From NCBI GenBank assembly GCA_024277355.1, contig JAJRVL010000004.1, positions 360,001-392,000 on the forward strand: DNA of 32,000 nt, written 5' to 3'. Of this stretch, positions 5,252-14,763 are shown piece after piece. Position numbers and translations under genes: made by a program. The first letter of the stretch is position 1. Each line of letters opens with the position of its first letter. The notes under the pieces were generated by a model. The model saw only the letters and a program-made list of their open reading frames with translations. It was not told where the DNA came from and ran no database searches. Origin of the DNA: an archaeon. Its GTDB lineage: Archaea; Iainarchaeota; Iainarchaeia; Iainarchaeales; 1-14-0-10-31-34.

Positions 5252-5665
5252 TTGACTGGGAAAATAAATAAGTTAATGATAATTATTTTTGCTTTAATTA
5301 TTTTTACTTCAATTAGTTCTGCTCAAGAAATAAATAACCTGAATATAGAATGGCAAACGCAATATAATGCTAAAATAAATTATATTGATGAAAACACTTA
5401 TGAAATAACATGGAACAATAATCCTTCAAATTCATTTATATCTAACGCATTAAGTGCAGCAAATGCTGATTCAATCTGGGTAAGCACAGCTTTAGGTTGT
5501 GAAGCATATTATTACGATGATGGAAGCGGAACAACTTATTGTGGAAAAGTATGTGGCAAACCTGCTACATGGCGCTGTACTGCAACTGGCAAACCATATA
5601 ATCCAATGGATTTGAAAACATTGTATTTGCAATGTGTGATTCTTGTTCATTTAAACAACAAGTAA
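5252..5665 (+). CDS. N-terminal fragment (signal peptide + first ~115 aa) of the interrupted surface protein
   Basis: 137-aa track ORF with a signal peptide (KLMIIIFALIIFTSISSAQE). A strong SD (AAGGGGGG) lies 6 nt upstream of the TTG start. Confidence 0.6.
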   Translation: MTGKINKLMIIIFALIIFTSISSAQEINNLNIEWQTQYNAKINYIDENTYEITWNNNPSNSFISNALSAANADSIWVSTALGCEAYYYDDGSGTTYCGKVCGKPATWRCTATGKPYNPMDLKTLYLQCVILVHLNNK

Positions 5666-6744
5666 TAAACAATTATTACAGCAGATGTAATAACCCAACT
5701 TGTTAGGGGAGTTATACTTATTCAAATTTAGTTCTTCAAAATGAAAGCGGTTATTACGCAGCAGATGACTGCAAATACACAAACAGAAATTCCTGCGGAA
5801 GCAATTCTTATTGTTCAACTGGAAGCTGTGAATGTAATGCAGGATACAGCAACTGCAATGGAAACCAAAATGACGGATGTGAAACAAACTTAAATTCAGA
5901 TAATTATAATTGCGGTTCATGCGGAAATTATTGCGGAGCAGGATATCAATGTGTTAGCGGAAGCTGTGTATTACAAGATCCTTGTGCAGGAGTAACCTGC
6001 AATAATTATTGTTCAGGAGAAACACGTTATTTTAGTGGTTATTGTTCTAGCGGAAGCTGTACAGGATACAATACAGAAAACTGCAATGCATATGACAATT
6101 ATGCCTGCAATGGAAACACAAGAGAATACCGAGATTATTATTGTTCATCTAATGGCTGTAATTATTCTGTTTCAAGTTCAATTAACTGTGATTCATTAGA
6201 CAGTTATGGGAACCTTGAATATTATTGTTCAGGCAATGACAGAAGACAACACAGAATATCATATGATTACAGTTGTTCTGGAGCTGACTGCTCTTTAATT
6301 TCCTCTAATTATGTTGACGACCAGTTAACTGAAACATGCACATATGAATGCTTAGGTTCCACTCCAAACGCTTACTGCAACAATGGTTGTTCAGGACAAC
6401 TTAATATTTCAGTTGAAGACAAACAAGGAAGCCTTTTACAAAACGCGTTAGTTTATGTTAATAATTTACTTCAGGGAACAACTGATTTACAAGGAAAATT
6501 TAGTGTTCCTACTTTAAGTAATCAATGCAATGAAATTTTTTCAATTAAAGTTGTTTCAGCTAAAGGAACTGACTGCGGAACAAAAACAACAATAATAAAC
6601 GAAGAATCAGACAAAGACTATATTTATTTTGCCTGCCAAGATCCCTTACCTCAAATAGAATTAGATACAGTTCCTGGAACCTATACTTATGTTTTAAATG
6701 AAATAATTAATTTTTCTGTTACAGCTTTTGATGAATTATCTGAA

Positions 6745-8613
6745 ATGCTTTCAAATGTTGGAATAGGAGTAGAAGACCCGCAACAAAATATTTCTTTCTG
6801 GAGCATTATTGCTTCTTTTCCATGGAATTATTCAAGTACAGCAGTTTCAACCGGCTTAACTGAATTCCAGTTCTCTGCATTCAAACAAGGCTTTGAACCA
6901 GACTACAAAAAAGTTTCAATTCAAATAGAAGACTTACCTTCAATTAAAGTTCAAGTAAAAGATTCACAAAACAATCCAATAGAAAACGCAAAAGTTTTAC
7001 TTGACAACGAATTAATAGGAACAACAAATTCTAATGGAACAAAAAACATTCCAGATTTATTAAAAGGACTTCATTCAATTGAAACACAATGCGCAAACAA
7101 TAAAACCTGCGGAACAAAAACAGTTGTCGCAGTAAGCGGAGAAAATGAAACAAACTTTACATGCAACTGCCGAGGAGATTTGTTAGTTGGGGCATTCACA
7201 GCACAAAATAATCTTCCTTTAGCAAATGCTTATGTCTTCATTGATGACATCAACAAAGGATTAACAAATCCTTCAGGATACCTTTACATAAAAAACAACC
7301 CATACGGATACCGCAACATTACTATCGGAATGAAAACAAAAACAGATGAAAACTCTGACTATGAAATAAGAAGTTCTTCTGTGTTAATTAATTTCATTGA
7401 AAACAAACAAGAAATAATATTCAACGTAGATGTAAATGAAATAACTGTGTTACAAAATTCTAGTGAAGAACAACAGCAAGAAATTCCAACAATAAACAAA
7501 ATAACAAGCCAAGACTTTAGTGAAATAATAGTTCCAGTATTAATATTATTTGGAATAGTTTATTTAAGTATTCAAGAAGCAAACTTCAAAGAAAACTGTG
7601 TTTACCCCTACAAAGAACACGGCAAATGGCCAGCACAACCATGCCAAGAAGAACTATTAACTTTAGAAACTGAATATACAATAGAAGCAGCAACCATAGG
7701 ACTCCCAATAAACAAATATCTTGGAAAATTCGCTGCATATTTTGGAAAAGGAGCAGTACAAACAATAGAAGCATTACCAAAAGGCTCAAAAGCAATTAAA
7801 TACCTTGGCAGAATTACCAAACTCATTGACAGCAAAAGAAACACATATTTACTAAAACTAAACAGAGGAATTGGCTTCAAAATAATAAACATTGGGGAAG
7901 AACTAATACAAACAGCAAACTCAATAAAAAATCCAATTATAAGACAAAAAATTGAAGAAACTGGAAACTTTATTTTTAAAATGGGGGCAAGAAATATTGG
8001 GAAAGAAGAATTCTTTTTGTATAGCAGTAAAGGAGGTAAAGATGCAGTACTAGGAGATTTAGGAGAAATATTTGGCAGACAATTAAACAATGATCTTGCA
8101 AACCAAGGAGTAGGAAGAGTTGTAAGCCAAGCAGATACTATAGACGGGCACACATTAGGAACTGTGATTTATAGAGATACAGAAGGAGTTATTAGAGAAG
8201 TTACTATCTCATTAAAAAGCAATCTTAGAAGTGTTCAATTTAAATCAGGTTTTGATAACATTGGGGAAATAGACGACCTTTTTTATTTTAGGGACGATTT
8301 AGGAACAGTTTGGCTCGACGCAAAAACAAAAAATAGTGCTTATAATATAGCTGAAGATATAGAAAAACAAGCACTAAGAAATAATCAGATACTAGAATCA
8401 CTTACAGGCAAACCTAGTCAAGGAATAATTACTGTGCCAAAAGGGACTTTATCAGAACCATTTATTTGGGGAAATAAAGGAGTAACAGTCACTTTAAAAG
8501 ACTTGGAACAAAAATATGGAGTAAGGTTTATTGAAATGGAGAATAACTATGTTGAATTAAATGAATGGTCAAACCAAATATTTAGGCTATTAGAAGGTGG
8601 AATATATGGATGA
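6745..8613 (+). CDS. C-terminal part of the interrupted surface protein: CarboxypepD_reg-like domains, one TM helix, nuclease-like C-terminal domain
   Basis: Track ORF beginning at the first ATG of a frame that is open from 5707. It contains beta-sandwich modules (IKVQVKDSQNNPIENAKVLLDNELIGTTNSNGT...; LVGAFTAQNNLPLANAYVFIDDINKGLTNPSGY...). A TM helix IIVPVLILFGIVYLSI (7525-7572) is followed by a ~345-aa domain with GDLGEIFG and GEIDD...LDAKTK. Confidence 0.7.
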   Translation: MLSNVGIGVEDPQQNISFWSIIASFPWNYSSTAVSTGLTEFQFSAFKQGFEPDYKKVSIQIEDLPSIKVQVKDSQNNPIENAKVLLDNELIGTTNSNGTKNIPDLLKGLHSIETQCANNKTCGTKTVVAVSGENETNFTCNCRGDLLVGAFTAQNNLPLANAYVFIDDINKGLTNPSGYLYIKNNPYGYRNITIGMKTKTDENSDYEIRSSSVLINFIENKQEIIFNVDVNEITVLQNSSEEQQQEIPTINKITSQDFSEIIVPVLILFGIVYLSIQEANFKENCVYPYKEHGKWPAQPCQEELLTLETEYTIEAATIGLPINKYLGKFAAYFGKGAVQTIEALPKGSKAIKYLGRITKLIDSKRNTYLLKLNRGIGFKIINIGEELIQTANSIKNPIIRQKIEETGNFIFKMGARNIGKEEFFLYSSKGGKDAVLGDLGEIFGRQLNNDLANQGVGRVVSQADTIDGHTLGTVIYRDTEGVIREVTISLKSNLRSVQFKSGFDNIGEIDDLFYFRDDLGTVWLDAKTKNSAYNIAEDIEKQALRNNQILESLTGKPSQGIITVPKGTLSEPFIWGNKGVTVTLKDLEQKYGVRFIEMENNYVELNEWSNQIFRLLEGGIYG

Positions 8614-9418
8614 CAAAGAAATATCAATTAAAATAGTCCTTAACAAAAAACACGATTCAATTGAAACAGTCTTTGAACTATTTGAAATTTTAGAAGACCT
8701 TAAGATATTCAGGTTATTTCCCATAGAAAAATATAAAACAGCAAAAAATATTCCTCAGAAAATAAAAAAAGAAAAACTAATTAAAGTTGATGAAGGCTGG
8801 CTTAATGAAACAAAAATTTCTGTAAATAATATTTCAATACATTTTGGTTTATGGACAAAAGAGTTTAATAGACAAAATGCAGAAGAAATCTATGAAAAAA
8901 TAAAAAAAGACAAAATACTACAACAGTTTAGCATTCAAATTAATTCCCCTTCAACAGTAATCACAATTAGCAACAATGCAACAAAAATAAACAACAAAGT
9001 CAGTATTGAAAACATAAAATGCATTCTTTCAAAATACACGCCAAACCAAGAAGGATGCGCAATAAAAATTTTAACAGACCAACAGTTATCAATAAACTAC
9101 TTTAAAGCAAAAAATAACATAATAAGTTTGAGATTTTATGAATTCTGCTCTTTTGATAAAAAAGAACGTAAATACAATAAATTAATAAAAAAACTTGTTG
9201 AATTTTCAAATAAAGTTAATCCAATAATAATATATGGAGGAATGTCTCCGCTGGTTACTGAATCTTCTTTAGAATACTACAGGGAAATCTATTACTTTTG
9301 TTTAGAACCGAAAACCCCTCAAAAAATGGGAATTCACACAGTAATAAAAAGTTTTGAGTATTTAACACAAAAAAACGAAAAAATAGAAGAAATAAAAAAA
9401 ATATTAAAAAAAGAATAA
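8606..9418 (+). CDS. hypothetical cytoplasmic protein, translationally coupled to the surface-protein gene (candidate immunity/partner protein)
   Basis: ATG 8606 lies behind GAAGGTGG and overlaps the upstream stop (ATGGATGA). The 270-aa protein has no signal peptide or TM and I recognise no family. The track start, GTG 8597, is also possible. Confidence 0.6.
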   Translation: MDDKEISIKIVLNKKHDSIETVFELFEILEDLKIFRLFPIEKYKTAKNIPQKIKKEKLIKVDEGWLNETKISVNNISIHFGLWTKEFNRQNAEEIYEKIKKDKILQQFSIQINSPSTVITISNNATKINNKVSIENIKCILSKYTPNQEGCAIKILTDQQLSINYFKAKNNIISLRFYEFCSFDKKERKYNKLIKKLVEFSNKVNPIIIYGGMSPLVTESSLEYYREIYYFCLEPKTPQKMGIHTVIKSFEYLTQKNEKIEEIKKILKKE

Positions 9419-9621
9419 CTTATTGAACTGATTAAAAAACACTCTGCCAAATTAATTGAAACAAAATATGGAATATTAGTAATAAAAAATAATTTGAATT
9501 CAACGGATTTAAAAAAAATCTATATGAATCCAAGATATTTTATTAACAAAGAATTACGAAAAAGAGGCATGCAAATAGAAGAAGGCAAAGCAGAAAAATA
9601 CGCAAAAAAGTTGGGATTAAA

Positions 9622-9747
9622 ATGAAAAAAGTATTCCTTCTTCTGATTTTAATTTTTTTAATCTATTCAGTTTCAGCTCAATCAAACTTTGAACCAGACT
9701 ACAAAAAAATTCCAATTGAAATAGTTCCTTATGGCGGAGGAGAATAA
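9622..9747 (+). CDS. 41-aa signal-peptide mini-ORF carrying a copy of an internal segment of the upstream surface protein
   Basis: MKKVFLLLILIFLIYSVSAQSNFEPDYKKIPIEIVPYGGGE. Its ATG overlaps the stop of the preceding open frame (ATGA), and its TAA abuts the next ATG (9748). Bases 9687-9708 are identical to 6891-6912. It is below the track length cut-off. Confidence 0.3.
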   Translation: MKKVFLLLILIFLIYSVSAQSNFEPDYKKIPIEIVPYGGGE

Positions 9748-10365
9748 ATGAAAATTAAAGAAAAAGAATTAATTGAAAGATTAAAAGGATCACTACAACT
9801 AAACTTAGTTCATTATGGAACAGAAATAGAAGATATAGAATTGCATATTAAAGGAACTTTAGAAAATGGATACGATGTTTCATCTGCAATTGAAACAAGA
9901 ACACAAATAAGTATCTTGTTAAACTATCTAAAAGACAAACCAACAGACACAAAAACATTTAACATGAAAGAATACAAAGAATTATTGAAATTCTTAGATA
10001 AAAAATTTGAAAAAATTAAACAAAGAAAAGATTTTCATGAAAAAGCACTGAAAGACTTAAAAAGTTTAGTAAACACTTGGGAACATCATGTGCAATGGCC
10101 TGCGATAGAATCTAATTCATTTGATAACGATTTAGAATTCCGAGACGACTGCGAAGCACTATTAAGAGAATTACAAGAAAAAAAAGAGATAACTGAATTA
10201 AAAAAAAGAATTAAAAACGCAGATGTAACTTTTCAAGGACATTCTTTAGAATTACTCAAAAGATTTCAAGGAGTCTATGAACATGGCGAATGGAATTATT
10301 ACCCTAAAAGTTATTGGTGGAGACACCTAAAAGAATTTGTGGAAAAACAAGAGGAAAAAAAATGA
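9748..10365 (+). CDS. hypothetical all-alpha cytoplasmic protein
   Basis: 205-aa ORF behind GGAGGAG. Its stop overlaps the next start (ATGA at 10362-10365). I recognise no family. Confidence 0.6.
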   Translation: MKIKEKELIERLKGSLQLNLVHYGTEIEDIELHIKGTLENGYDVSSAIETRTQISILLNYLKDKPTDTKTFNMKEYKELLKFLDKKFEKIKQRKDFHEKALKDLKSLVNTWEHHVQWPAIESNSFDNDLEFRDDCEALLRELQEKKEITELKKRIKNADVTFQGHSLELLKRFQGVYEHGEWNYYPKSYWWRHLKEFVEKQEEKK

Positions 10366-11849
10366 CTCAAAAAGTTTTCTGGAAAAGCGCATTAAAAGCC
10401 AGTGCTTTAATGTATTTTATTATTGGAATACTTTCAACAGTTATTTTAATTCTGTTTTTCAGTGACAAACTAGACCAAATAATGAGCATTGCAATGACTG
10501 ACAAAGAATGGCTTGAAGCAACAGCATTTCCAATGACAATAATGTATGTATTCTTGATTTTTGCATGGATTCCGTTTGGCTTTTTATACAAAAAAATCCC
10601 TTTCAAGAAAACAATTGTAAAAGTATTTTTGTTTAACTTAATTCTTGTAGGAATTGAATTATTGATTACAGCTGTATTTGAAATAAAAAATACAGATGTT
10701 CTTAATGAAATATTTTTTGGTTCAGATAACTGCTGTTATTCGTTTATTCCCTTGTTTCTTTTAACAACAATAATGTTTGCATATTTGTTTGATTTCTTTA
10801 AGAAAAGAGAAGAAAAAGAGATTTCAGGAAAAACAAAAAACAAGCTTGCTTCAATTCCAAGAAGATTGCTGGCTTATATAATTGACTTAATAATTCTGTC
10901 AATTATCTTTGGAATAATTTCATTTATTATATCCTCAGTAGCAAACATTATGGTATTTAATTCAAACATTGAACTAAGTTCTGTTGCAGTAATAACTTTA
11001 ATGTCATTTTGTTTTGTTGTTGCCCAAACAATTTACTGGACAGTAGTAGAAGGAAAATTTGGTGCAAGCATTGGGAAAAAAATATTGAAAATAAAAGTAA
11101 TAAAAGAAAATGGAAAAGAAATAAGCTACATTGATGCATTCTTTAGAAACATAACAAAATTTGCCGATAATCTTTTGCCTTTCTTACTAATAGATGCATT
11201 AACAATTTTTACAACAAAAAACAAGCAAAGATTTTTTGATAAAGTTGCAGGAACAATTGTAGTTAGAACTGATTTAAAAAAAGAAAAATTAATGTTAGAT
11301 TCACCTAAAGCAGGTTTTATTCAAAGATTTAGTGCAAGAATTATTGATGGACTAATATTATTGGCATTACTATGTATTTCAGTATTTGTTTCAGCAATAA
11401 TTATTATGGCAGCAGGAAACGATCCAACATTAATTTTTTTGCCTGCTCTTTTTCTTTATTTAATTCACTTGTTTATTTTTGAACCAGTATATTGGATTTA
11501 TTTCACTGCAACAAAAGGCCAGACAATCGGAAAACAATTAAGAAAAATAAAAATTTATACAATAGAAGGAAACACTCCTGTTGGCTGGAAAAAATCAATA
11601 CTAAGGTATTTTGCTTACTGGATTTCCCTTTATTCTTTTTTGCTGGGCCTTTTATGGATTATTTTTGACAAAAACAAACAAAGCTGGCATGACAAATTTG
11701 CAGATACTTTTACAGTAAGAGAAGAGAAAAAGGCTTTTGAAATAAAAAAATACACAATTTATTTGATTGCTATTTCAATAACATTAGGCGTGTTTTTTGG
11801 AGTTCTGTTCAGTTTAATTGGCATTGCAATGCAAGGAGGGATTGCATGA
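10362..11849 (+). CDS. polytopic membrane protein with two RDD-family domains
   Basis: Trimmed to ATG 10362 (MTQKVFWKSALKAS...). It has two units of the RDD pattern: a basic start (IPRRLLAYIIDLII / FIQRFSARIIDGLI), TM helices, then ...FFDKVAGTIVVR and ...SWHDKFADTFTVR. An extra N-terminal multi-TM region is present. Confidence 0.7.
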   Translation: MTQKVFWKSALKASALMYFIIGILSTVILILFFSDKLDQIMSIAMTDKEWLEATAFPMTIMYVFLIFAWIPFGFLYKKIPFKKTIVKVFLFNLILVGIELLITAVFEIKNTDVLNEIFFGSDNCCYSFIPLFLLTTIMFAYLFDFFKKREEKEISGKTKNKLASIPRRLLAYIIDLIILSIIFGIISFIISSVANIMVFNSNIELSSVAVITLMSFCFVVAQTIYWTVVEGKFGASIGKKILKIKVIKENGKEISYIDAFFRNITKFADNLLPFLLIDALTIFTTKNKQRFFDKVAGTIVVRTDLKKEKLMLDSPKAGFIQRFSARIIDGLILLALLCISVFVSAIIIMAAGNDPTLIFLPALFLYLIHLFIFEPVYWIYFTATKGQTIGKQLRKIKIYTIEGNTPVGWKKSILRYFAYWISLYSFLLGLLWIIFDKNKQSWHDKFADTFTVREEKKAFEIKKYTIYLIAISITLGVFFGVLFSLIGIAMQGGIA

Positions 11850-12526
11850 ATATATCTAAAAAGTTTTTAATTTATTTTTTCTTGATTTTGTTTTTAGTTC
11901 AGTTTAGTTATCCTTTAATTTTAACTAAATCTTTTGTTGTTTCTGAACCAATAACTGAAGTTTCACAAAAAATTTCTCCTGAATTAGTTTCTTTAACTGA
12001 AAGTTTTCCTTTAAAAACAACTAAAGTTTTAATTCAAGCAGAAAACGAAAATGCATTAAATGAAATTGCTTTATTAACAGAAAGTTTAGGCGGAACAAAA
12101 GCAGAAAATGTTTTAATTGAAATATTTTTTGACGGAATAAAAATTCATGATGAAAACATTAATGTTAATTCAAATGAAACAAAATCAATTATAGCAGAAA
12201 CAAACCAAAACACTGGAATTCATTTAATTGAAGTTAAAATAAATTCAAGTCAAACAGTTATTGAATCAGATTACACAAACAATAATTTAATTTATGAAGC
12301 ATATTTATGCAGTAAATCAAATATTTTAATTATAAATGACAATGACGCAGAAAATTATGCAACAGACAATCCTGAAAGCATTAATGCATTTGAAGAAGCA
12401 TTAAAAGCAAACCTTTATTGTTTTGAAGTATGGAATGAAAAAACACAAGGAGTTCCAACAATAGAATACTTAACTAAATTTAATTTATTGATTTGGAGTA
12501 TACTGGAAATTACTGGAACACAGTAA
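11846..12526 (+). CDS. secreted protein with CARDB-like domain, 5' fragment of a frameshifted gene
   Basis: The ATG overlaps the upstream stop (ATGA). It has a signal/anchor sequence (FLIYFFLILFLVQFSYP). A CARDB-like beta-sandwich ends ...GIHLIEVKINSSQTVIESDYTNNN. The reading frame continues in another frame from about 12499. Confidence 0.6.
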   Translation: MNISKKFLIYFFLILFLVQFSYPLILTKSFVVSEPITEVSQKISPELVSLTESFPLKTTKVLIQAENENALNEIALLTESLGGTKAENVLIEIFFDGIKIHDENINVNSNETKSIIAETNQNTGIHLIEVKINSSQTVIESDYTNNNLIYEAYLCSKSNILIINDNDAENYATDNPESINAFEEALKANLYCFEVWNEKTQGVPTIEYLTKFNLLIWSILEITGTQ

Positions 12527-13152
12527 TAAACGAAGAAGACATGAATTTACTGCAAGAATACACTAAAGGAATTATATTTGAAGGAACAGACATTGCTTTT
12601 GACCATGCAAATGAATTGTTTTTAGAAGAAAAACTTTATTCAAATTTAGATAAAGATTTAATAATTGACGGACAAGAACCATTAATTCTATCAAACCATG
12701 AATTATTAAATGGAATAACTCAGATTACAATTGATGGAAACATTTCTCCTTACCCTGATTCAGTTACTCCAGTTAATTCAATCAGCATTGCTGACTGGAA
12801 TAATGCTGAATCTGCAATAATTTTAGCTGACTCAAATAAAACAATTTATTTTGCTTTTTCAGTTAATTCAATTAATGAAATTAATTCAAGAAATAAATTA
12901 ATTGCAAATTCAATTGAATTCATTATTCAGTCAACTTCAACACAAGAATGCGGAAACCTTGACAACAAAGACTCAGTTGACATATCTGATTTAATTTATT
13001 TAATTAATTACCTGTTTAAAGGAGGCCCTGAACTTCAATGCATGCCAGTAACCTGTAATGCTTCAAATGACTTAACTCAAAACTGGACAATAGAAGATAT
13101 AAGCAATTACATTGAAAACGCACAGCAAACAAATATACAAATAAAGAATTAA
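12493..13152 (+). CDS. 3' fragment of the same frameshifted secreted protein, dockerin-like C-terminus
   Basis: This frame is open only from 12484. The sequence continues the upstream protein (..NLLIWS | YTGNYWNTVINEEDMNLLQEYTKGIIFEGTDIAF..). The C-terminus has a dockerin/EF-hand-like segment, CGNLDNKDSVDISDLIYLINYLFKGGPELQC. Confidence 0.55.
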   Translation: MEYTGNYWNTVINEEDMNLLQEYTKGIIFEGTDIAFDHANELFLEEKLYSNLDKDLIIDGQEPLILSNHELLNGITQITIDGNISPYPDSVTPVNSISIADWNNAESAIILADSNKTIYFAFSVNSINEINSRNKLIANSIEFIIQSTSTQECGNLDNKDSVDISDLIYLINYLFKGGPELQCMPVTCNASNDLTQNWTIEDISNYIENAQQTNIQIKN

Positions 13153-13204
13153 ACAACAACAATATATTTATATTATAATTCTCCCATTATAGGTTAATAG
13201 TGAT

Positions 13205-13840
13205 ATGATGAGTTTTAGTTTGCTTGTTAGAAAACTTTTGCTTGATAACAAAAGATATATTTCTAAAGAAACACTTAAAGAATACTGTAAAAAACTTGGA
13301 ATTTCTTATATTAATGCAATAAAATATTTAAGCAAATACAAATATATTAAAAGAATTGTCAGAGGTTTTTTTTATGTTCCGTGAATTGAAGAAAGAAAAC
13401 TTAAAACAGGCAGACCAAACCATTTAGAAGCCATTGCAGAAGCAATGAAATATAAGAACGTAAAAAAATGGTATGTTGGACTGGAAACAGCTATAAAATT
13501 AAATACAATAACACATGAATTTTTTACAGTAGATTATGTTGTTTCTGATAAAATATTCAGGGCAAAAGCATTTGAAATATTAGGAAGAAAAGTAAAATTT
13601 GTTAAACTAAATAAAAAATTGTTTGGTTTTGGAATAAAAAAAACTGGAAGAATACCTTTCTCTGATTTAGAAAAAACATTGCTGGATTTGATTCATTTAA
13701 AGGTTCATTCAGGTAAATCAGAAAACGCAATAAAAAACGAGTTAATTGAATGGATTAAAAAAGCAGACAAAAGTAAATTAAAGACATACAGCAAACACTA
13801 CAACAATAAAGTAAAAAAAATTATAGAGGAATTAATTTGA
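13205..13840 (+). pseudogene. abiEi: AbiEi-family type IV antitoxin interrupted by an in-frame TGA (13382-13384)
   Basis: ATG 13205 opens the wHTH part (MMSFSLLVRKLL...LGISYINAIKYLSKYKYIKRIVRGFFYVP), which then hits TGA. The same frame continues IEERKLKTGRPNHLEAIAEAMKYKNVKKWYVGLETAIKLN... to 13840. Joined, the sequence has the AbiEi layout (wHTH ending rGxYy, then the C-terminal domain). Confidence 0.65.
13445..13840 (+). CDS. AbiEi C-terminal domain ORF (track ORF downstream of the TGA)
   Basis: 131-aa track ORF in the same frame as 13205-13381. It contains ...WYVGLETAIKLNTITHE...IPFSDLEKTLLDLIHL, typical of the AbiEi C-terminal region. Its stop overlaps the toxin start (TTGA). Confidence 0.6.
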   Translation: MKYKNVKKWYVGLETAIKLNTITHEFFTVDYVVSDKIFRAKAFEILGRKVKFVKLNKKLFGFGIKKTGRIPFSDLEKTLLDLIHLKVHSGKSENAIKNELIEWIKKADKSKLKTYSKHYNNKVKKIIEELI

Positions 13841-14763
13841 TTTCAAAAGGAATAATTGAATTGCTTTCACAAAAACTAGAAATAAAAAACAATTCATTAA
13901 TAGAAAAAGACCTTTATTTGCAGGGGTTGTTAATTGAATTATCAAAATCAGATTACTTTGCTGAAAATTTTGCTTTTAAAGGAGGAACTTGTTTAACTAA
14001 AGTATATTTTGGTCATTATAGATTTTCTGAAGATTTGGATTTTACTTGGATTAATCAAAAAATATTTGAAAACAAATCAGAAAAACAAATAAGAAAAATG
14101 CTTTCAAAAGAAATAAATAAAATAACAAAATTAATTGAAATTATTGCTGAAAAACTTGAACTTGAATTTAAGGGAATAAAATCAGACAAACATTTTGTTG
14201 AACTTGGAGGAAGCAATAAGTTTACTACATTGAAATTATGGTATAAGTCAACAACAGAAAACAGGAAAACTTTTATTAAAATCCAAATTAATTTTATAGA
14301 AAAACTATTTTATAAACTAAAAAAACAAGAAATAAAAGCTATTGCTGAAAAACACAAAAAAGAACTTGAATTTTTATATCCTAAACACGCTAAAATGGCA
14401 ACACAAAATACTAAATTAAAAGTCTATGACTTAAAGGAAATAGCCGCAGAAAAAGTCAGAGCATTGCTTACCAGAAGAGGATTTAAAGCAAGAGACATTA
14501 TTGACTTGTATTTTCTTTCAAAAAAAGGAATTACAATAAAATCAGTGAAAAAAATAGCCATAAAAAAAACAATGTTTATGTTAAAATACCTTAAATACTG
14601 GGAAAACCTAAAAAATAAAAAATTTGAAGAAGAATTCAAAGCAGGAGAAGAAAAACAACTTATAATAAAAGAAATATCAAAAGACTTCAGCAAATTTGCA
14701 GAAACAAACCTGAAAGAATTAAATAAACTTGCTGAAGAAATAAGAAAAAAACACAAAAAATAA
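13837..14763 (+). CDS. abiEii: AbiEii/AbiGii-family nucleotidyltransferase toxin (DUF1814)
   Basis: 308-aa protein with the N-terminal NTase signature FAFKGGTCLTKVYFGHYRFSEDLDFTW. Later it has EIAAEKVRALLTRRGFKARDIIDLYFL. The TTG start sits behind AGAGGA and overlaps the antitoxin stop. Confidence 0.85.
   Translation: MISKGIIELLSQKLEIKNNSLIEKDLYLQGLLIELSKSDYFAENFAFKGGTCLTKVYFGHYRFSEDLDFTWINQKIFENKSEKQIRKMLSKEINKITKLIEIIAEKLELEFKGIKSDKHFVELGGSNKFTTLKLWYKSTTENRKTFIKIQINFIEKLFYKLKKQEIKAIAEKHKKELEFLYPKHAKMATQNTKLKVYDLKEIAAEKVRALLTRRGFKARDIIDLYFLSKKGITIKSVKKIAIKKTMFMLKYLKYWENLKNKKFEEEFKAGEEKQLIIKEISKDFSKFAETNLKELNKLAEEIRKKHKK

Follow-up and report, generated by a model that had tools for sequence, protein, structure and literature searches.

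The locus described here raises the question of how about 1 kb of apparently coding DNA can do without a start codon. It lies at positions 5252–8613 on the plus strand of the window, i.e. the whole 32,000-nucleotide (nt) stretch of archaeal DNA that was analysed (positions 360,001 to 392,000 of contig JAJRVL010000004.1, assembly GCA_024277355.1). Just two open reading frames (ORFs) are listed for this strand of the interval, 5252–5665 (137 amino acids, aa) and 6745–8613 (622 aa). The frame of the second ORF, however, is open back to 5707, and the 346 codons of 5707–6744 include no ATG, GTG or TTG, ATG 6745 being the first such codon after an in-frame TAG (5704–5706). This TAG is preceded by 34 further open codons starting at 5602, with TAA 5599–5601 closing the same frame upstream; translated in a single frame, 5602–8613 comprises 1,003 codons with the TAG as the sole stop. 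The two ORFs, the start-less stretch, the TAG and the 34 codons before it had been noted in the original prediction and are borne out by the ORF list and the translation. Its proposal that a single gene carries a frame change within 5602–5665 plus a nonsense codon also holds up: 5252–5665, 5602–5703, the TAG and 5707–8613 are pieces of a single gene with about 1,120 codons, which explains the apparently start-less coding DNA. The interruption is an ordinary one, be it that of a fresh pseudogene or a lesion of the assembly, and involves no new mode of decoding; as to which of the two, we lean towards a real and recent inactivation within a decaying accessory island.

The single-gene architecture follows from the alignment of intact homologues. 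A protein database query with 5602–8610, in which the TAG was read as a residue, retrieved four full-length homologues (P0002–P0005, with 1100, 1165, 1085 and 1195 aa, respectively), whose alignments span as much as 94% of the query. Among 40 related genomes, including five others of the same genus, the frame was found open throughout in G002 (1106 aa), G005 (1096 aa) and G033 (907 aa). P0002, which is the open frame of the same-genus genome G002 and the closest homologue in the N-terminal region, follows a single colinear path through the first ORF, the 33 inter-lesion codons and the long frame. At the shift, the window reads ..YN / NGFENIVFAMCDSCSF.. where P0002 has ..YNANQFESLAYVMCDSCSF.., the orthologue running through YNANQFES unbroken; at the stop, ..NPTC-TAG-GSYTYSNL.. 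stands opposite ..NPTCYSSYSYSNL.. in P0002. Between the two lesions, a run of 16 residues starting with MCDSCSF is identical to P0002 (locus L002). All homologues are single open frames that continue across both positions and none shares either interruption; nor is any relative split at the same points with start codons of its own, a situation which the original prediction had named as one that would speak against a single broken gene. No paralogue was detected by tblastn in the organism's own genome. P0002 is likewise free of Met over the region equivalent to 5707–6744, and the Met-free stretch, which encodes Cys-rich modules, is thus a property of the family.

Comparison with the G002 DNA reveals a net shortfall of 4 nt in the window, corresponding to a full codon and a further base. 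The change of frame falls within 5600–5607 (AAT CC- AAT GGA) and amounts to one lost base, which narrows the interval first proposed: second-frame homology begins at codon 5605–5607, and the TAA at 5599–5601 bounds the change upstream. No homopolymer, A/T run or tandem repeat is present at this site. The column of the TAG is occupied by TAT (Tyr) in G002 and by GAT (Asp) in G033, but relatives as distant as these, about 77% identical at the DNA level, are a poor guide to the ancestral codon. Frame change and TAG are only about 100 nt apart in a gene of 3.4 kb, which would happen by chance in about 6% of cases. The broken gene has retained 40 of 41 invariant cysteines and 86.6% of the columns that are invariant in the four intact homologues (89.6–95.4% for the intact homologues themselves); since this test is confounded by branch length, it is not decisive on relaxed constraint, but the retention of most invariant cysteines and columns does suggest a young lesion.

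Taken at face value, the gene would have been inactivated by a base going missing at about 5603–5605 and by a change from a sense codon to TAG at 5704. The real start is probably the TTG at 5252, which has AAGGGGGG upstream as a ribosome-binding motif and is followed by a signal-peptide-like N-terminus. Translation from there would stop at TAA 5663–5665 after 137 residues and the remaining 1,000 codons would therefore not be made. Could the pieces nevertheless serve as separate products, i.e. an N-terminal fragment of 137 aa that is secreted and a protein of 622 aa that starts at ATG 6745? Both are callable ORFs, and the 622-aa ORF is indeed a public gene call (P0001). Yet no G-rich ribosome-binding motif precedes ATG 6745, in contrast to 5252, and this Met sits inside a block common to the homologues (..FSEMLS..), so that it looks like an internal Met and is improbable as a real start. 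Moreover, the 622-aa product would lack a signal peptide despite its extracellular-type beta-sandwich domains, some 1 kb of conserved coding DNA would stay untranslated, and no relative is split in this manner. We thus regard functional fragments as highly improbable; the 622-aa ORF would rather be a gene-caller artefact.

Programmed expression, i.e. a −1 ribosomal frameshift combined with read-through of the TAG, or a phase-variable on/off state, is another way in which an interrupted frame could remain meaningful. In favour of it, phase variation typically affects surface proteins, the downstream frame is long and undamaged, and the first frame contains a T TTA AAC heptamer. As the shift site, however, this heptamer was rejected as coincidental, because homology has passed to the second frame (FENIVFAMCDSCSF) as early as 45 nt before it, and the actual shift point (AAT CCA ATG) is devoid of an X XXY YYZ slippery heptamer. 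There is also no repeat tract at the frame change that could support phase variation. ARAGORN, run with and without introns, detected no tRNA with a CUA anticodon in the genome, and for PylS only weak class II synthetase matches below the model cut-off were obtained. TAG terminates 58 of 750 long frames and just one of these 58 is followed by a long open stretch, i.e. TAG behaves as a normal stop in this genome. With neither interruption common to any homologue, programmed recoding or phase variation seems very unlikely here, and even when functional fragments are counted in, these readings together stay improbable. Of the three options in the original prediction, a fresh pseudogene, a phase-variable gene and a recoded gene, only the first therefore survives.

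Whether the lesions reside in the organism or only in its assembly is a more difficult question, and it has to be seen against the state of the entire genome sequence. The assembly represents a small archaeon (1.13 Mb in 11 contigs, 28% G+C, 96% complete), probably of DPANN type. A PAN-type proteasome ATPase is encoded near the locus, and the homologues are named ‘archaeon’ or ‘Diapherotrites’. A first genome-wide scan for in-frame stops by a codon-usage score gave 459 candidates and was discarded as far too loose. Of the stricter scans, one, in which a single stop had to divide two long open parts of one frame with no start codon closely following, yielded 21 candidates and another 27, i.e. 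roughly two dozen as an approximate count, and Pfam searches with ten of the read-through translations indicated that only some of the candidates are true interruptions. Three stops lie inside conserved domains, namely those of a carbamoyltransferase, an M17 aminopeptidase and deoxyhypusine synthase; intact same-genus orthologues have GAA, GGA and GGA, respectively, in these columns, so all three are coding-strand G-to-T changes. The only deoxyhypusine synthase of the genome carries its stop as TGA, and the only prolyl-tRNA synthetase (ProRS, above the TIGR00408 cut-off) carries an in-frame TAA. A second synthetase-like frame, at C2:515685, also contains a TAA. A frameshift scan found seven candidates including the gene described here, and four of the other six are located at homopolymers of 7–10 bases. 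In the same-genus genome G001, an M17 aminopeptidase gene (G001:C25:2915-4351, L034) has one in-frame TAA, and this assembly is therefore not alone in the genus in having interrupted genes.

Since fixed nonsense codons in the only ProRS and the only deoxyhypusine synthase would be unlivable, the assembly demonstrably holds errors, damage or minority variants. The gene at 5252–8613 could accordingly be intact in the organism, its lesions being low-depth consensus errors, damage-type G-to-T miscalls or minority strain variants taken up in an accessory region that varies between strains. The raised internal-stop count agrees with the report that such counts mark assembly error, with coverage and the assembler as causes (Cooley and Wright 2024, BMC Genomics 25:365, PMC11017572). 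Assembly error, which the original prediction itself named as refuting it, gains weight from the scatter of similar lesions over the genome, some of them in essential genes. The G-to-T direction of all three stops checked against orthologues (shared by a stop in the neighbouring gene 2, see below), the homopolymer indels elsewhere, the short distance between the two lesions and the otherwise well-conserved coding sequence all fit as well. Against this, the frame change lies outside any homopolymer, and the closest relative has TAT at the TAG column, which would need T-to-G and not G-to-T. The surrounding island also has a lesion density about ten times the genome average as well as an 888-nt deletion beyond the reach of base-level error. 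We consider an intact gene behind a faulty assembly a serious possibility, though on balance the less likely one. Alternatively, premature stops and frame changes might be tolerated or corrected throughout the genome of this organism by efficient read-through, ribosomal frame correction or RNA-level repair, in which case the surface protein encoded here, ProRS and deoxyhypusine synthase would all be made in full from interrupted DNA; we give this idea hardly any credence.

The neighbourhood of the gene bears directly on this question. The gene heads a conserved module that is shared with G002 (contig JBDRFE010000055.1), and at the locus of P0003 the neighbourhood is the same, with an M50 peptidase, a helix–turn–helix protein and the PAN ATPase followed by the homologue of the gene. 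Downstream, four of five loci encode a gene 2-like protein, whose gene frequently overlaps the gene 1 stop codon; besides the present locus, three have the gene 2 family in this position. Here, gene 2 is interrupted by a TAA that aligns to GAA (Glu) in G002, again a G-to-T change; when read through, it gives 342 aa. A C-terminal truncation of gene 2 was considered and rejected, as its end matches the natural C-terminus of the family. Gene 3 encodes a signal-peptide protein of 341 aa in G002, whereas only an in-frame remnant of 41 codons is left in the window. The underlying deletion is about 888 nt long, with 9609–9711 and 9698–10467 matching G002 segments that are 888 nt apart, and it is flanked by short similar sequences around an FEPDYKK-coding motif. 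Gene 4 and an RDD-family gene are intact. Further on, two overlapping ORFs in different frames (11846–13152) correspond to one repeat-rich G002 gene of 1841 aa and about 1,240 codons are gone; the frame change, near 12500, is located outside a homopolymer and between residues that are contiguous in G002. Either real decay or repeats collapsed in assembly could account for this shortening. An AbiEi-like antitoxin gene (13193–13840) contains an in-frame TGA (13382–13384) where five relatives have Thr or Ser, with intact 210-aa homologues present in seven relatives, while the adjoining AbiEii toxin gene (13837–14763) is intact. In total, five point lesions and two large deletions have hit 8.6 kb of accessory genes (5252–13840), a density about tenfold higher than the estimated genome-wide rate of approximately one point lesion per 35–40 kb.

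These data are consistent with an accessory island that decays as a whole. Its lesions are restricted to dispensable genes, with intact genes interspersed, and the patchy distribution to be expected of a dispensable gene fits the presence of the full-length gene in two of the five other same-genus genomes. Both frame changes in the island are outside homopolymers, unlike four of the six other candidates in the genome; together with the TGA at a Thr/Ser column they do not match the errors seen across the genome, whose signature is G-to-T change and indels at homopolymers, and this favours real decay, as do the large deletions, which are not base-calling errors. We therefore infer, with moderate confidence, that the lesions are present in the DNA of the organism and not only in its assembly, and that the decay is recent.

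Several observations weigh against this interpretation. The same assembly has stops in conserved domains of three enzymes, and its interruptions of the only ProRS and the only deoxyhypusine synthase are impossible if fixed in a living cell. If the ancestral codon was GAG, the TAG at 5704 would fit the G-to-T series and could belong to it. Two lesions 100 nt apart are explained by a locally poor assembly at least as well as by two independent mutations, the repeat-rich neighbour may owe its shortness to repeats collapsed in the assembly, and a strain-variable island with low effective depth is a further possibility. Apart from its lesions, the coding sequence looks fully constrained. Finally, a degenerate 47-mer from the inter-lesion segment, scanned against metagenome and genome collections, matched only the G002 orthologue, i.e. 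there was no second sampling of the population in the collections scanned.

What kind of protein is, or until recently was, encoded here? It starts with a signal peptide, continues through a Cys-rich region and beta-sandwich domains to a single transmembrane helix, and ends in a C-terminal domain of 330 aa. The Cys-rich modules were correctly seen in 5707–6744 in the original prediction, but the CarboxypepD_reg module that it also placed there is found elsewhere: the Pfam match to PF13620 (37.8 bits, gathering cut-off 32.3; the homologues match too) covers residues 412–482 of the 5707 frame, i.e. it lies downstream of 6745, and the stretch 5707–6744 itself gives only a weak CarbopepD_reg_2 match (E 0.079). 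The C-terminal domain has no match in Pfam, NCBIfam or PDB sequences and is nearly an orphan, with six weak matches among 1.84 billion representative proteins; an AlphaFold2 model from a three-sequence alignment has a mean predicted local-distance difference test score (pLDDT) of 34 and is unusable. This domain varies among homologues, P0002 and P0003 being similar to the window and P0004 and P0005 not. As side observations, the C-terminal domain (window 7600–8613) includes a candidate D..(D/E)xK-like motif but belongs to no detectable family, and beyond the transmembrane helix it differs between genomes (loci L027, L054, L055 and L003). A strict pairing of the polymorphic-toxin/immunity kind, in which this C-terminus would co-vary with the downstream gene, was considered but is unsupported, since the gene 2 family is kept where the C-terminus differs. 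By analogy, the gene probably specifies a large membrane-anchored cell-surface protein of the fast-evolving kind that is tied to host contact in DPANN archaea.

Table 1. Positions of the gene segments, lesions and neighbouring features in the window, and of further interrupted genes in the same genome (G000).
Feature	Position	Strand	Remarks
N-terminal part, first frame: signal peptide and ectodomain start	5252..5604	+	117 codons + 2 bases; matches the same-genus orthologue over residues 1-141
Frame-change site	5600..5607	+	reading ..YN-P / N-GFEN.. short by one base; no homopolymer or repeat
Inter-lesion segment, second frame	5605..5703	+	33 codons; best-conserved part of the N-terminal region
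T TTA AAC heptamer	5648..5654	+	first frame, shortly before the stop of that ORF
In-frame TAG	5704..5706	+	aligns to Tyr (TAT) in G002, Asp (GAT) in G033
Remainder of gene	5707..8613	+	968 codons: Cys-rich modules, beta-sandwich (CarboxypepD_reg) domains, one transmembrane helix, C-terminal domain
622-aa ORF reported by gene callers	6745..8613	+	begins at a probable internal Met of the full gene; public gene call P0001
Partner gene 2	8597..9625	+	shares 17 nt with the end of gene 1; cut by TAA 9416-9418
Gene 3 remnant	9622..9747	+	41 codons: signal peptide and first residues joined in frame to the last 13 residues
Interrupted carbamoyltransferase gene	C2:271435-273252		
Interrupted M17 aminopeptidase gene	C6:3950-5449		
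Interrupted deoxyhypusine synthase gene	C7:24586-25917		
Interrupted ProRS gene	C2:246123-247553		

For annotation, our analysis means that the 137-aa and 622-aa calls are to be merged as one interrupted gene. Furthermore, as the assembly carries many single-base stops and some frameshifts, readings of other loci in this genome as recoded or split genes need read-level proof first. If local decay is real, an accessory surface-protein island is being lost in one lineage while sister genomes keep it, a pattern that is to be expected for host-interaction genes of small symbiotic archaea.

How does this locus compare with known systems? Pyrrolysine decoding of UAG occurs in Methanosarcinales, and −1 frameshifting at X XXY YYZ sites is exemplified by dnaX. 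With such programmed recoding the locus has in common an in-frame TAG and a −1 frame change within one conserved coding sequence, but pyrrolysine machinery, a suppressor tRNA, a slippery site at the shift and conserved interruptions are all missing here. Spurious pseudogenes (Cooley and Wright 2024, PMC11017572) are similar in that an assembly from metagenome-type data shows raised internal stops and homopolymer frameshifts, with genes hit that must function; the differences are the frame change outside a homopolymer, the roughly tenfold denser lesions and the large deletions. Compared with young pseudogenes of reduced host-dependent microbes, the present assembly is unusual in also having stops in essential genes, which true pseudogenization does not explain. 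Otherwise, the likeness is extensive: there are intact orthologues, few lesions in a frame that is otherwise preserved, damaged or deleted neighbours and a patchy distribution in the genus. Among the fast-evolving surface proteins of DPANN archaea, where an elevated density of non-synonymous single-nucleotide polymorphisms has been described for putative surface proteins of Nanoarchaeota (Jarett et al. 2018, PMC6142677), the present family stands apart in its almost orphan C-terminal domain. It resembles them, however, in its signal peptide, its long beta-sandwich and Cys-rich ectodomain and its membrane anchor, as well as in the way in which its presence and its termini vary among close relatives.

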